Part shown: positions 1 through 39,695 of the stretch, one piece after another
How the letters are laid out: each line of letters starts with the position of its first letter
Position numbering within the stretch: position 1 is the first letter of the stretch
DNA from: Escherichia coli
Lineage (GTDB): Bacteria > Pseudomonadota > Gammaproteobacteria > Enterobacterales > Enterobacteriaceae
NCBI RefSeq assembly: GCF_022846255.1
Contig: NZ_AP025682.1
Direction: 5' to 3' (one strand)
Length of the DNA stretch: 64,000 nucleotides
Program-made: the position numbers and the translations under genes
Notes under the pieces: model-generated
The model's input: only the letters and a program-made list of their open reading frames with translations
What the model was told of the DNA's origin: nothing
Databases searched by the model: none

Positions 1-644
1 ATTTTATGGTGCTGCTGGAGCCAGAGATTATCCTCAATGCGCCGCAAGAATATCTGCTGGCGGGGATCGGTGACACGCTGGCGAAATGGTATGAAGCGGT
101 GGTGCTGGCTCCGCAACCAGAAACGTTGCCACTAACCGTGCGGCTGGGAATCAATAATGCGCAGGCCATTCGCGACGTCTTGTTAAACAGTAGCGAACAG
201 GCGCTTGCCGATCAGCAAAATCAGCAATTAACGCAATCATTTTGCGATGTGGTGGATGCCATTATTGCTGGTGGTGGAATGGTCGGTGGTCTGGGCGATC
301 GTTTTACGCGTGTGGCGGCGGCTCATGCCGTGCATAACGGTCTGACCGTGCTGCCGCAAACCGAGAAGTTTCTCCACGGCACCAAAGTCGCCTACGGCAT
401 TCTGGTGCAAAGCGCCTTGCTGGGTCAGGATGATGTGCTGGCGCAATTAACTGGAGCGTATCAGCGTTTTCATCTGCCGACTACGCTGGCGGAGCTGGAA
501 GTGGATATCAATAATCAGGCGGAGATCGACAAAGTGATTGCCCACACCTTGCGCCCGGTGGAGTCCATTCATTACCTGCCAGTCACGCTGACACCAGATA
601 CGTTGCGTGCAGCGTTCGAAAAAGTGGAATCGTTTAAAGCCTGA
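1..644 (+). CDS. ybdH: 3' portion of a glycerol dehydrogenase-like iron-containing alcohol dehydrogenase (YbdH/HcxA); the 5' end lies outside the window
   Basis: ORF 6..644 runs in frame from the window edge; the translation resembles the Fe-ADH / glycerol dehydrogenase family; position next to ybdD-cstA matches K-12 synteny. Confidence 0.85.
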   Translation, partial: FMVLLEPEIILNAPQEYLLAGIGDTLAKWYEAVVLAPQPETLPLTVRLGINNAQAIRDVLLNSSEQALADQQNQQLTQSFCDVVDAIIAGGGMVGGLGDRFTRVAAAHAVHNGLTVLPQTEKFLHGTKVAYGILVQSALLGQDDVLAQLTGAYQRFHLPTTLAELEVDINNQAEIDKVIAHTLRPVESIHYLPVTLTPDTLRAAFEKVESFKA

Positions 645-653
645 CGTGCAAAT

Positions 654-851
654 TTAGCAGCAGCGCGCGCCGCCTTTTCCACCGTAGCGCGCGTCCTGCC
701 GCTCACGGAAAAACTCTTCGTAGGTCATCGGCGTTTGATCGGGATGATTAACCCGCATATGTTCGACATAGTTGTCGTAATCAGGCATACCAATCATCAG
801 CTTCGCCGCCTGACCTAAATATTTTCCGGCTTTTGCCAGTGAATCAAACAT
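654..851 (-). CDS. ybdD: Small DUF466 protein YbdD, downstream partner of cstA
   Basis: 65-66 aa [61 protein letters not shown]; lies just downstream of cstA on the same strand. Confidence 0.85.
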
Positions 852-882
852 CAATACCTCCGGTAAACAGGTTGCTGAGAGA

Positions 883-985
883 GTGCCGGATGCGGCGTGA
901 GCGCTTTATCCAGCCTACAAATGCTATCAACGCGCTCGGTCAGTCCCCTCGCCCCACCGGGGAGAGGGTTAGGGTGAGGGGGAAC
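883..985. repeat. REP-like palindromic unit (gccggatgcggcgtgagcgctttatccagcctaca) followed by a GC-rich box C-like element (cccctcgccccaccggggagagggttagggtgaggggg)
   Basis: Direct reading: canonical REP motif gccggatgcggcgtga...ttatcc...cctac plus a G/C-rich imperfect palindrome, in the cstA-ybdD intergenic spacer. Confidence 0.6.
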
Positions 986-1032
986 CCTCGGCACTATGCC
1001 AACATTCGCCAACATCCCCCCTCACTCTGACT

Positions 1033-3138
1033 TTAGTGTGCGCCTTTTGCCTGCGCCACGATCTCCTCGACATTTTCCGGCATTGGCTCATACGGCGTTT
1101 CTTTCGCCGTTGGCTTCGGATCTTTCAATGCCGCCAGTGCCGTCTTAATCGAGAACAGCGCCAGAACCACCACGACCACCATAAAGAAGATGGTTAACCC
1201 GGCATCCAGACGGTTGTTGAACACCAGTTGCGCCAGCTGTGACTCAGTATACTGCGACGGAATATTGCCGCTGTCGATCATTGCCTGGAACTTATTAGCA
1301 ATGGCCAGGAAGCCGACTTTCGCATCCGGGCTAAACGCTTTCTGCCAGCCTGCAGTCAGGGTACAAATCAGCAGCCAGGCCGTTGGTACCAGCGCCACCC
1401 AGGCGTAACGTTGACGTTTCATTTTGAACAGCACCACGGCACAGAGCATCAGCGCCATCCCTGCCAGCATCTGGTTGGCAATACCAAACAGCGGCCACAA
1501 GGTATTAATACCGCCCAGCGGATCGACCACGCCCTGATGCAGGAAGTAGCCCCACGCCAGCACACACAGCGCCGTTGCCAGCAGGTTCGCTGGCAGTGAA
1601 TCGGTCCGCTTCAGGCCAGGAGAAACCACGCCCAGCAGATCCTGCAACATAAAGCGTGCAGCACGCGTACCTGCATCCACCGCTGTCAGAATAAACAGTG
1701 CTTCAAACAGAATAGCGAAGTGATACCAGAACGCCACATCCATCATGCCGCCCAGCGCGCCGTGCAGAATGTAGGCCATCCCCACCGCCAGCGTCGGCGC
1801 ACCGCCCGCACGGGAAATGATCGACTGTTCACCCACTTCGCTGGCAATCTGGTTGAGCGTATCTGGTGTAATGCTAAAGCCCCAGCTACTCACCACCTGC
1901 GCGGCAGAAGCGACCACATCCGCCGTCCCTGCCGGAGCCAGCACCGCCATTGGGCTGTTCATGGCAAAATACACGCCCGGATCGATGATACAGGCAGAAA
2001 CCAGCGCCATAATCGCCACGAAGGATTCCATCAACATCCCACCGTAGCCGATAAAGCACGCCTGCCCTTCGTTCGCCAGCATCTTCGGCGTGGTGCCGGA
2101 AGAGATCAGCGCATGGAAGCCAGACACCGCACCACAGGCGATGGTGATAAACAGGAACGGGAACAGGTTACCGGTCCATACCGGTCCAGTGCCATCGACA
2201 AATTTGGTCAGCGCAGGCATGGTCAGCGTCGGGCGCATAATCAAAATGCCTACCGCCAGACCGACGATAGTCCCGATTTTCAGGAAGGTAGAGAGGTAGT
2301 CACGCGGGGCCAGCAGCAACCACACCGGCAGCACCGCCGCCACAAAACCGTAGCCCACCAGCATCCAGGTCAGCTGCACGCCGGTAAAGTCAAAGTACGG
2401 TGCCCAGGTCGGACTTTCTGCCACCCAGCCGCCAGAAATAATGGCGAAAATCAGGAATACCAGACCGATGACCGACACTTCACCAATACGCCCCGGACGC
2501 AGATAACGCAGGTAGATCCCCATGAACAGCGCCAGCGGAATGGTGAAAGCAACGGTATACGTTCCCCACGGGCTATGAGTCAGGGCTTTCACCACGATCA
2601 TCGCCAGCACGGCAAGGATAATGACCATGATCATAAAGCAGGCCACCAGCGCAATCACCCCGGCGGTTGGCCCCATCTCTTCTTTGACCAGCTCACCCAG
2701 CGAGCGACCGTCACGACGCGTAGAAACAAACAGCACCATGAAATCCTGCACCGCACCGGCGAGAACCACCCCGGCGAGCAGCCAGATCATCCCCGGCAGG
2801 TAGCCCATTTGCGCCGCCAGCACCGGCCCCACCAGCGGCCCTGCTCCGGCAATGGCCGCAAAATGGTGACCGAACAGCACTTTCTTGTCCGTCGGCACAT
2901 AGTCCAGCCCGTCGTTATGGCGCACCGCTGGCGTCATACGCGTCGGGTCAACCGCCAGCACATTTTTGGCGATATACAGACCATAAAAACGGTAAGCGAT
3001 CAGATAGATACAGACCGACGCCACCACAATCCACAGCGCGTTGATCTGTTCCCCACGATTTAAAGCAATGTATCCCAGAGCAAATGCTCCCATTACAGAG
3101 AGCACTGTCCAGACGAGGTATTTCCCTGATTTGTTCAT
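1033..3138 (-). CDS. cstA: Carbon starvation protein A, peptide/pyruvate transporter
   Basis: 701 aa polytopic membrane protein MNKSGKYLVWTVLSVMGAFALGYIALNRGEQINALWIV...; the length matches CstA. Confidence 0.95.
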   Translation of the reverse strand: MNKSGKYLVWTVLSVMGAFALGYIALNRGEQINALWIVVASVCIYLIAYRFYGLYIAKNVLAVDPTRMTPAVRHNDGLDYVPTDKKVLFGHHFAAIAGAGPLVGPVLAAQMGYLPGMIWLLAGVVLAGAVQDFMVLFVSTRRDGRSLGELVKEEMGPTAGVIALVACFMIMVIILAVLAMIVVKALTHSPWGTYTVAFTIPLALFMGIYLRYLRPGRIGEVSVIGLVFLIFAIISGGWVAESPTWAPYFDFTGVQLTWMLVGYGFVAAVLPVWLLLAPRDYLSTFLKIGTIVGLAVGILIMRPTLTMPALTKFVDGTGPVWTGNLFPFLFITIACGAVSGFHALISSGTTPKMLANEGQACFIGYGGMLMESFVAIMALVSACIIDPGVYFAMNSPMAVLAPAGTADVVASAAQVVSSWGFSITPDTLNQIASEVGEQSIISRAGGAPTLAVGMAYILHGALGGMMDVAFWYHFAILFEALFILTAVDAGTRAARFMLQDLLGVVSPGLKRTDSLPANLLATALCVLAWGYFLHQGVVDPLGGINTLWPLFGIANQMLAGMALMLCAVVLFKMKRQRYAWVALVPTAWLLICTLTAGWQKAFSPDAKVGFLAIANKFQAMIDSGNIPSQYTESQLAQLVFNNRLDAGLTIFFMVVVVVLALFSIKTALAALKDPKPTAKETPYEPMPENVEEIVAQAKGAH

Positions 3139-8147: not shown

Positions 8148-8176
8148 ATCATCCTCCACAAAATGATAAAGGCTTT

Positions 8177-8195
8177 AATAATGATTATCATTTAT
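8177..8195. promoter_or_regulatory. Fur box in the divergent entC / fepB promoter region
   Basis: aataatgattatcatttat closely matches the Fur consensus GATAATGATAATCATTATC; sits between divergent iron-regulated operons. Confidence 0.75.
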
Positions 8196-8335
8196 ATTTT
8201 CGGTCGCTAACCTAAAAGCAAACGCGCACTATGTCAACTCTTGAGGTAACGCAATCTGCAACTCGGGGTTGCATCTGGTTGTGGTTACAATGAAAATGAG
8301 AAGCATTAACTTCATTAATAACAGGAAGCTGATTT

Positions 8336-10644: not shown

Positions 10645-10656
10645 ATGGAAGTTCGT

Positions 10657-11661
10657 ATGTCTGGTTCTGTTGCCGTGACACGCGCCATTGCCGTGCCCGG
10701 ATTGCTGTTATTACTGATTATCGCGACGGCATTAAGCCTACTCATTGGGGCAAAATCACTCCCCGCTTCCGTAGTGCTGGAGGCGCTCTCCGGCACCTGC
10801 CAGAGCGCCGACTGCACCATCGTGCTCGACGCACGACTGCCGCGCACCCTTGCCGGTTTACTGGCAGGCGGTGCGCTTGGCCTTGCCGGGGCGTTAATGC
10901 AAACCCTCACCCGAAACCCGCTTGCCGATCCTGGTTTGCTTGGCGTGAACGCCGGTGCCAGTTTTGCCATTGTGCTGGGCGCGGCGCTGTTTGGTTACTC
11001 TTCCGCGCAGGAACAACTGGCGATGGCCTTCGCCGGGGCGCTGGTGGCCTCGTTGATTGTTGCCTTTACCGGCAGCCAGGGCGGCGGGCAGTTAAGTCCG
11101 GTGCGTTTAACCCTGGCAGGCGTGGCGCTGGCGGCGGTGCTGGAAGGGCTGACCAGCGGCATCGCCCTGCTTAATCCCGACGTCTACGATCAACTGCGTT
11201 TCTGGCAAGCCGGTTCGCTGGATATTCGCAATCTACATACCTTAAAAGTGGTGCTGATCCCGGTGCTTACCGCTGGAGCAACTGCGCTATTACTGAGCCG
11301 CGCGCTGAACAGTTTAAGCCTTGGCAGTGACACCGCGACGGCACTGGGCAGTCGCGTAGCGCGCACACAGTTGATTGGTCTGCTGGCAATTACCGTGCTT
11401 TGTGGTAGTGCGACGGCGGTAGTTGGCCCGATTGCCTTTATTGGCCTGATGATGCCGCACATGGCGCGCTGGCTGGTAGGTGCCGATCATCGCTGGTCGC
11501 TGCCCGTCACGCTACTCGCTACCCCTGCCCTGCTGCTGTTTGCCGATATCATTGGGCGGGTGATTGTTCCCGGCGAACTGCGCGTTTCTGTAGTCAGTGC
11601 CTTTATTGGCGCACCAGTGCTGATCTTCCTCGTACGACGTAAAACGCGAGGTGGCGCATGA
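10657..11661 (+). CDS. fepD: Ferric-enterobactin ABC transporter permease
   Basis: MSGSVAVTRAIAVPGLLLLLIIATALSLLIGAKSLPASVV...; FecCD-family permease; start chosen 4 codons inside the track ORF because the upstream ATG lies within the Fur box; gives 334 aa. Confidence 0.9.
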   Translation: MSGSVAVTRAIAVPGLLLLLIIATALSLLIGAKSLPASVVLEALSGTCQSADCTIVLDARLPRTLAGLLAGGALGLAGALMQTLTRNPLADPGLLGVNAGASFAIVLGAALFGYSSAQEQLAMAFAGALVASLIVAFTGSQGGGQLSPVRLTLAGVALAAVLEGLTSGIALLNPDVYDQLRFWQAGSLDIRNLHTLKVVLIPVLTAGATALLLSRALNSLSLGSDTATALGSRVARTQLIGLLAITVLCGSATAVVGPIAFIGLMMPHMARWLVGADHRWSLPVTLLATPALLLFADIIGRVIVPGELRVSVVSAFIGAPVLIFLVRRKTRGGA

Positions 11662-22625: not shown

Positions 22626-22720
22626 GTTCATGCCGGATGCGGCGTGAACGCCTTATCCGGCCTACAAAAAATCTTGCCAATTCAATATATTGCAGGACCA
22701 CGTAGGCCTGATAAGCGTAG
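22626..22720. repeat. BIME: two inverted REP units
   Basis: gccggatgcggcgtgaacgccttatccggcctaca ... gtaggcctgataagcgtagcgcatcaggca, classic REP palindromes in opposite orientation downstream of fepA. Confidence 0.7.

Positions 22721-39609: not shown

Positions 39610-39695
<86 letters not shown>

Follow-up and report, generated by a model that had tools for sequence, protein, structure and literature searches.

A mosaic of a single REP and one box C repeat between cstA and ybdD of Escherichia coli and its likely role at the 3' end of cstA mRNA

Two families of dispersed intergenic repeats, both described since the 1980s-1990s, are the closest known relatives of the DNA segment considered here. 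The first is the REP element, or PU. Its Y type, a unit of BIMEs, is a 34-nt imperfect palindrome with a CTAC head, which is extragenic, highly repeated, and transcribed inside operons between tandem genes. The second is an intergenic, multi-copy element with a tripartite motif and family flanks, which was earlier named BoxC, then PIT, and is described as TMECO by Holder et al. (2015; PMC4666352) and as HPG1 elsewhere (PMC5100583). In K-12, the 'A mm' pattern of its motif has 13 copies (Table 1 in Holder et al. 2015, PMC4666352). The effects reported for these repeats on gene expression are varied. Terminal REPs show no genome-wide association with longer mRNA half-lives, the upstream/downstream expression ratio is raised in tandem gene pairs that contain a REP, and REP325 in yjdM-yjdN acts both as a partial Rho-dependent terminator and as a stabilizer of the upstream mRNA (bioRxiv 10.64898/2026.03.23.713779). 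Isolated PIT (box C) elements had neither promoter nor terminator activity in the reporter tests of Hoyne & Maher (2002), as far as these are related in PMC4666352. A further relevant system is the class of RNA 3' ends described by Dar & Sorek (2018), which lie directly past stable stem-loops that lack a U-tract and result from the trimming of Rho-terminated transcripts by PNPase/RNase II (PMC6061677).

Here, we analyzed a 64,000-nt stretch of E. coli DNA (assembly GCF_022846255.1, contig NZ_AP025682.1; hereafter the window), which runs in reverse relative to the E. coli K-12 map around 632 kb. The segment of interest lies in the 181-nt spacer 852-1032, which separates two co-oriented genes, cstA and ybdD, as a first-pass annotation of this DNA had stated. 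Both genes are on the minus strand. Two unrelated and long-known dispersed repeats, a single REP and one box C, make up this intergenic segment. Its REP shares with other REPs the features listed above, but is a single unit and not a BIME pair or cluster. Its box C has the motif, the flanks, and the intergenic location of the family, but the motif end also serves as the 3' arm of a post-stop hairpin that is older and specific to the locus, which results in a predicted Y shape. The likeness to the stem-loops of Dar & Sorek (2018; PMC6061677) consists of a stable GC-rich structure, the lack of a U-tract, and an RNA 3' end a few nucleotides beyond the structure in K-12; however, the only Rho signal recorded at the cstA-ybdD spacer is on the opposite strand. 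REP325 is likewise a repeat-derived hairpin module between tandem genes that favors the upstream gene, as this segment may also do, but it is a cluster of several REPs with Northern and deletion evidence, whereas the present pair of one weak REP and one box C is known by sequence and folds. The positions of all features are listed in Table 1.

Table 1. Features of the cstA-ybdD spacer and its surroundings, with positions in the window
Feature	Position	Strand	Basis or remark
hcxA (ybdH), 3' part	6-644	+	ORF list and annotation of matching E. coli records
ybdD, 65 aa, YbdD/YjiX family, downstream of the spacer	654-851	-	ORF list and matching E. coli annotation
ybdD start codon ATG	851-849	-	Sequence
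Shine-Dalgarno sequence GGAGG of ybdD itself	861-857	-	Five nt before the ybdD ATG
Single Y-type REP	885-918	none assigned	GCCGGATGCGGCGTGAGCGCTTTATCCAGCCTAC; 1 mismatch to the degenerate consensus GCCGGATGCGGCGTGARCGCYTTATCCGGCCTAC
Linker, A/U-richer and largely unpaired, between the box C structure and the REP; mRNA CGCGUUGAUAGCAUUU	919-934	-	Sequence, folds
Box C / PIT / TMECO 'A mm' / HPG1 unit	about 928-985	+	Core 946-981, left flank 928-945, right flank 982-985
Y-shaped RNA structure (predicted)	939-1031	-	Fold of 935-1035 (-) and inverted repeat I1
Tandem 10-nt duplication GCCAACATTC / GCCAACATCC, in the loop of the long post-stop hairpin	998-1017	+	
5' arm of the post-stop hairpin, GUCAGAGUGAGGGGG	1017-1031	-	Alignment, outgroup spacers, folds
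cstA stop codon UAA	1035-1033	-	
cstA, 701 aa, upstream of the spacer	1033-3138	-	ORF list and matching E. coli annotation
Approximate ortholog of the K-12 631,994 Rho termination region	~1038	+	~7 nt past the structure for hcxA-strand transcripts

The sequence of window 600-1300 is identical to that of no complete RefSeq E. coli genome, the best identity being 98.0% over 701 nt. Identity of window 1-1851 to K-12 is 96.7% over 1,851 nt, and identity to E. albertii, E. whittamii, and two further Escherichia lineages is about 90.5%. The hcxA and ybdD genes are convergent, and their stop codons are separated by 9 nt (645-653), with no terminator between them. Therefore, hcxA lacks a terminator ahead of the spacer, and the transcripts of hcxA and ybdD must each run antisense into the other gene. 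The promoter scan found no sigma-70-like promoter on either strand of 600-1300, and thus gave no evidence for a ybdD promoter inside the spacer. The terminator scan of the same interval found 0 sites with a hairpin and U-run on either strand. Two mechanically predicted ORFs that extend across the repeats, at 833-1030 (plus strand, 65 aa) and 851-1015 (minus strand, 54 aa), were treated as artefacts of the GC-rich repeats because the region is indel-polymorphic between strains.

The REP palindrome that the first-pass annotation had placed in the spacer was recovered there. It is of the type of imperfect palindromes of ~35 nt with the consensus GCCGGATGCGGCGTGAACGCCTTATCCGGCCTAC, contains the REP tetranucleotide GTAG/CTAC at one end (CCTAC at 914-918), and is read in the cstA-ybdD mRNA as 5'-GUAGGCUGGAUAAAGCGCUCACGCCGCAUCCGGC-3'. 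The Y-type consensus that we used has two degenerate positions, and the element differs three times from the strict K-12 sequence. This consensus gave 3 matches across the window and 0 matches in 100 dinucleotide shuffles. The other two matches, at 22632-22665 and 39617-39650, are further Y-type REPs, one of which is perfect to the consensus while the other has two mismatches. The element in the spacer is extragenic and highly repeated, with at least 40 matching pieces in E. coli genomes. When 500-1400 was scanned against Rfam with E up to 10, no family reached its threshold, and the only relevant match was a sub-threshold half-match that corresponds to the REP itself: 881-915 (minus strand) aligned to one REP hairpin of naRNA4 (REP325) with 26.5 bits. 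This is below the gathering score because only one of the hairpins of the model is present. Matches to the mir-423 and antizyme families were chance matches due to the GC-rich palindromes.

The REP hairpin was predicted at -13.9 kcal/mol (z -1.7), and 13 of 200 shuffles were equally stable. Under the same folding, the orthologous REP hairpin of K-12 reached -21.1 kcal/mol (z -5.1). The three substitutions relative to K-12 account for this loss of ~7 kcal/mol. In the fold of the full spacer, the REP was partly paired with the box C flank instead. Judging from these models, the REP in the window looks like a decaying element and not a maintained one.

The palindrome that had been described as box C-like proved to be an exact copy of the published motif. 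Window 946-981 reads CCCTCGCCCC ACC GGGGAGAGGG TTA GGGTGAGGGG, which corresponds to CCCTCGCCCC-N3-GGGGAGAGGG-TTA-GGGTGAGGGG, i.e., the TMECO 'A mm' type (PMC4666352 Table 1), and shows the tripartite arrangement CCCTC(G/T)CCC(C)-loop-(G)GGGAGAGGG-TTA or CCG-GGGTGAGGG. The 21-mer GGAGAGGGTTAGGGTGAGGGG from the box C core was found once in the window against 0 expected, and the segment 936-1032, which includes box C and its cstA-side flank, matches a median of 15 places per genome, and up to 26, in E. coli. Aligned with eight further copies from K-12, the sequence revealed that the family shares more than the core, namely the flanks ACGNGCNCGGNC(G/A)GT on the left, which is semi-conserved, and AA on the right. 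It is the plus strand that carries the G-rich side of box C, and this strand serves as the template for cstA-ybdD. As both genes are on the minus strand, their mRNA carries the C-rich strand of box C, CCCCCUCACCC-UAA-CCCUCUCCCC-GGU-GGGGCGAGGGG. A nearest-neighbor DNA fold of box C gave hairpins only (-22.2 kcal/mol, z -3.4). A match to GGGTGAGGG at 10904-10912 lies inside the ORF 10645-11661 (plus strand) and was rejected as a chance match.

Both repeat families and the K-12 copy of this box C are already known: the K-12 ortholog is tabulated as HPG1 no. 19, at 632,058 between cstA and ybdD (Kaplan et al. 2016, PMC5100583). It has one base substitution in the third segment relative to the window. 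Its absence from Holder's list of 23 copies is due to this single substitution in an end segment. In NC_000913.3, as represented in the RefSeq-derived E. coli collection, no repeat feature is annotated at the cstA-ybdD spacer. A second presence/absence difference of the box C family was seen in the divergent entC-fepB intergenic region (8160-8335), which is 176 nt long in the window and lacks box C. The corresponding fepB-entC region of K-12 is ~362 nt long and has two box C copies in inverted orientation, TMECO nos. 7 and 8, at 624,579-624,676 (Holder 2015, PMC4666352).

In the mRNA, box C is predicted to be part of a larger structure. The fold of the mRNA strand of 935-1035 had a free energy of -51.9 kcal/mol (z -3.84), and 0 of 200 shuffles were as stable. 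In this Y-shaped fold, the outer stem pairs GUCAG (1031-1027) with CUGAC (943-939). The first branch is a long hairpin between 1029-1018 and 982-971, the 3' arm of which is the box C end segment, and the second branch is the box C hairpin CCCUCUCCCC-GGU-GGGGCGAGGG (968-946). The two arms of the long hairpin were also detected as the inverted repeat I1, in which 1017-1031 is 87% complementary to the box C end at 968-982 over 15 nt; in the mRNA, the box C segment CCCCCUCACCC thus faces GUCAGAGUGAGGGGG (1031-1017). This post-stop arm begins 2 nt past the cstA stop codon and recurs in every Escherichia allele examined, whether or not the allele carries REP or box C, as does the post-stop hairpin itself. 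In the loop between the arms, strain GON1437 has a 10-nt alignment gap at the tandem duplication, and the repeat-free alleles lack the entire loop segment. The first-pass annotation had delimited the composite element at 883-985; this span does enclose both the REP and box C, but misses the partner arm at 1017-1031, which pairs with 968-982.

The sequence that follows the Y structure, CGAGCGCGUUGAUAGC, contains no U-run, nor does a U-run follow the REP in this window. The REP hairpin itself would be a second, weaker hairpin 20 nt beyond the Y structure. The opposite (plus) strand of 935-1035 folded at -46.4 kcal/mol (z -3.89). Liang, Rudd and Deutscher reportedly found in 2015 that REPs located within about 15 nt of a stop codon hinder terminating ribosomes. 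By analogy, it is conceivable that the Y structure, which starts 2 nt past the cstA stop codon, impedes ribosomes in a similar way.

In K-12, an RNA 3' end was mapped next to box C. Adams et al. (2021) reported a dominant curated Term-seq 3' end at 632,098 (+), inside the K-12 cstA-ybdD spacer (PMC7815308, Supplementary file 1). The peak is modest, with 1,686 average reads in LB at OD 2.0 only, which is one of three conditions, and the end, which is classed as 'orphan', precedes the ybdD start by 84 nt (PMC7815308). By reading the K-12 sequence directly and aligning it to the window, we mapped this end to the G that follows GGGGACUGACCGA, i.e., to window 935 (minus strand). The convention of the sequence strings of Adams et al. 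was checked on thrL, where the 3' end corresponds to character 51 of the string. In the mRNA, position 935 comes 4 nt after the pairing of the box C structure ends, before the REP is reached; it is directly followed by the linker and not by a U-tract. The RNA 3' end of K-12 thus sits just past the box C structure and not at the REP. Given this end, transcript coverage across cstA-ybdD is not uniform in K-12. The earlier proposal that such elements stabilize the upstream mRNA or differentially terminate transcription is thereby supported, with box C and not the REP as the site. As counter-evidence, these RNA data come from another allele, whose box C is one base different, and from one of three conditions, so that their transfer to the present genome is an extrapolation.

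An end that lies 4 nt past a stem, with no U-tract and with no intrinsic terminator found in the scan, fits the class described by Dar & Sorek (2018). Three other K-12 copies of box C also have curated Term-seq ends 3-4 nt past their hairpins, namely at 3,781,065 (+), which is the primary end of lldD (PMC7815308), at 4,231,270 (-), and at 3,959,467 (-). The last of these is a type B copy that is read in the G-rich orientation. By chance, ~0.1 coincidences between box C and RNA 3' ends would be expected, compared with four distinct sites; this rough estimate (~50 strand-specific 10-nt windows, a few thousand curated ends, and 9.3 Mb of strand positions) ignores that both features favor gene ends. 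A different arrangement was seen in the fepB-entC region of K-12, where a very abundant Term-seq end at 624,680 (-), with 103,563 reads (Adams 2021), lies 4 nt before box C no. 8, just upstream of the element and not after its hairpin.

The opposite-strand structure is nearly as stable as that of the mRNA strand, and the spacer therefore probably also bounds the read-through transcripts of hcxA, as far as the folding model goes. The K-12 list of Rho termination regions in Adams 2021 includes one at 631,994 (-), on the strand antisense to the end of cstA, with a Rho score of 4.49 and a significance of 7.9e-6 (PMC7815308, Supplementary file 2). The resolution of such regions is coarse, as the best position alone is reported within 800 nt upstream and downstream. 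At this resolution, the Rho termination region of the hcxA strand comes only past the box C structure.

Taken together, REP and box C most likely protect an mRNA 3' end or attenuate read-through. We consider it rather probable that the repeats serve as exchangeable hairpin modules, where the box C structure defines and protects the 3' end of cstA, read-through carries ybdD, and the spacer sets the CstA:YbdD ratio. Both repeats lie within the transcribed cstA-ybdD message. Transcripts would be terminated or cut further downstream, the termination occurring without a U-tract and possibly with the assistance of Rho, and would then be trimmed by 3' to 5' exonucleases up to the box C structure. Such trimming would leave a stable cstA mRNA that ends ~4 nt past the structure, while ybdD would be carried by the read-through fraction only. 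The spacer would thereby set the cstA:ybdD ratio and would not act as an on/off switch, and the same structure would also bound transcripts that leave the convergent hcxA through ybdD. Trimming or termination as the origin of the 3' end, as well as the effect on ybdD, are what we infer from the mapped K-12 end and the folds. Counting against this reading are the negative reporter tests of isolated PIT elements, the E. coli genomes that have neither repeat, the apparent decay of the REP, the missing genome-wide association of terminal REPs with longer mRNA half-lives, and the upstream start site implied by the filter of Adams et al., by which the end might belong to a short transcript of its own. 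CstA and YbdD act jointly in pyruvate uptake (PMC5847655), and therefore their ratio plausibly matters.

The variation of the spacer within the species bears on whether such a role is under selection. Among 5,426 complete E. coli genomes, at least five spacer allele types with at least four presence/absence states were distinguished. Both repeats are present in about 3,700-3,770 genomes (about 69%), with a spacer of 181-182 nt. This figure was obtained by subtraction and agrees with independent counts of 4,070 genomes with box C at the locus, 3,829 genomes with the REP and its left flank, and 3,920 genomes with a contiguous REP-to-box C segment at an identity of at least 95%. Box C alone occurs in 125 genomes of the MS1718 type (spacer of 143 nt) and 211 genomes of the GN06156 type (153 nt), together about 6%, and the REP alone in 134 genomes of the GON1437 type (127 nt; about 2.5%). 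The 98198 type, with a spacer of 112 nt and neither repeat, accounts for 1,188 genomes (22%). As both repeats are missing from 22% of the genomes and one of them from about another 9%, cstA-ybdD function requires neither. Where the repeats are absent, a plain hairpin, GCCCUC...GAGGGC with AUUUGUAUU after it, takes the place of the REP; this hairpin resembles the one of Citrobacter and Salmonella, and the allele without repeats keeps both box C flanks. All non-coli Escherichia examined (E. albertii, E. whittamii, and two further non-coli lineages) have the REP only, and from these comparisons box C at the cstA-ybdD spacer appears to be specific to E. coli within the Escherichia examined.

Across 77 species of Enterobacteriaceae, the cstA-ybdD spacer has a median length of 63 nt. 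Its fold reached -15 kcal/mol or lower in 74 of the 77 species, with z of -2 or lower in 71; in the other direction, three species have a spacer of 25 nt or less and no hairpin. The full box C motif was present in the spacers of 13 species, often as an inverted pair, and an Enterobacter-type REP in those of 14, while canonical terminators with a hairpin and U-run were found in few of the 77. An example of a hairpin with a U-run at this position is that of Atlantibacter (CUCCCCGGC...GCUGGGGAGUUUUU). The hairpin slot is thus conserved across Enterobacteriaceae, but its filling is not, as it consists of plain hairpins, U-tract terminators, REPs, or single or paired box C. In Enterobacter, Lelliottia, Leclercia, Phytobacter, and Pluralibacter, the spacer has an inverted box C pair with folds of -66 to -90 kcal/mol and a polarity opposite to that of E. 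coli. Contamination or mis-binning seems to account for two database entries outside the family: a 465-nt contig under the label Streptomyces sp. DH24, whose YbdD is 98% identical to the query, and a MAG labelled Bacillota that has an Enterobacter-like cstA-ybdD spacer with REP and box C.

These comparisons also weigh on the best-surviving alternative, according to which the repeats are neutral, selfish, or decaying elements in a tolerant spacer, and any 3' end is a side effect without a selected role. At least four presence/absence states and five allele types in one species are what such neutrality would produce, and the three hairpin-weakening substitutions in the REP, the lack of K-12's fepB-entC box C pair in this genome, and the unusually frequent rearrangement of box C loci between strains (Holder 2015, PMC4666352) point the same way. 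Nevertheless, 74 of the 77 species have a strong hairpin of some kind in the spacer, and at the REP position the E. coli allele lacking both repeats has a plain hairpin, which suggests that a hairpin role is kept while its carrier changes. We therefore regard pure neutrality as doubtful, although it overlaps with the explanation by exchangeable hairpin modules, because it accepts the molecular effect and denies selection alone.

The G-rich template strand could also act as DNA, as an obstacle to RNA or DNA polymerase or a cause of local rearrangement, if it formed a G-quadruplex or an intrastrand triplex. The plus strand has four G-runs of at least 3 nt with 3-nt loops (GGGG AGA GGG TTA GGG TGA GGGGG), and Kaplan 2016 counts the K-12 copy as one of the 'highly putative G-quadruplexes' and describes a quadruplex/hairpin switch of the related HPG2 oligonucleotide in vitro (PMC5100583). 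Triplex formation was observed in vitro and the motif was linked to locus instability (Holder 2015, PMC4666352); the cstA-ybdD locus is itself indel-rich in the strain alignment. In the same study, however, the double-stranded form was a duplex only, with no DMS protection in vivo (Holder 2015, PMC4666352), and PIT was without effect on replication, conjugation, and transcription in vivo, as far as PMC4666352 recounts the earlier study that it cites. The mapped 3' end is accounted for by the simple hairpin and Y structure with no need of non-B DNA, and since RNA 3' ends are found past box C hairpins whichever way the element is oriented, the hairpin is implicated rather than the G-run. Such DNA structures are thus an improbable explanation.

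The 3' end could belong to a separate short transcript, e.g., an sRNA derived from the cstA 3' UTR, that starts in the cstA 3' end or the spacer and ends at box C. The retention of 632,098 in Supplementary file 3 of Adams 2021 implies, by the stated filter of that study, a transcription start site within 200 nt upstream (PMC7815308). With neither a sigma-70-like promoter on either strand of 600-1300, nor an Rfam family at threshold in 500-1400, nor a U-tail for Hfq, we judge this very unlikely. A classical intrinsic (Rho-independent) terminator between cstA and ybdD, as found in some other genera such as Atlantibacter with its hairpin and U-run, is the least credible option for the window, where no U-run follows the REP or the box C structure and the scan of 600-1300 found no such terminator.

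Beyond the role of exchangeable hairpin modules at this locus, a broader proposal can be put forward tentatively, as a possibility that we hold with less than even confidence. Box C may be a REP-like family of mobile modules that define RNA 3' ends, the slot between cstA and ybdD may have been swapped repeatedly, the E. coli structure may be bidirectional, and its alleles may tune CstA:YbdD between strains. If this is true, box C would serve as a cap for the transcripts of cstA on one strand and for hcxA read-through on the other, contrary to the older report of no terminator activity of box C.

As the repeat families are known, our additions to the biology of these repeats are small: how box C hairpins relate to RNA 3' ends, how frequent the alleles are, and how hairpin modules turn over across genera. 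Their value is modest and is that of a worked example, in which box C, an element said to be without a transcriptional role, coincides with a mapped RNA 3' end at this locus and at three other K-12 sites. The cstA-ybdD spacer offers a natural allele series for how intergenic repeats may tune the ratio between the CstA transporter and its YbdD partner.
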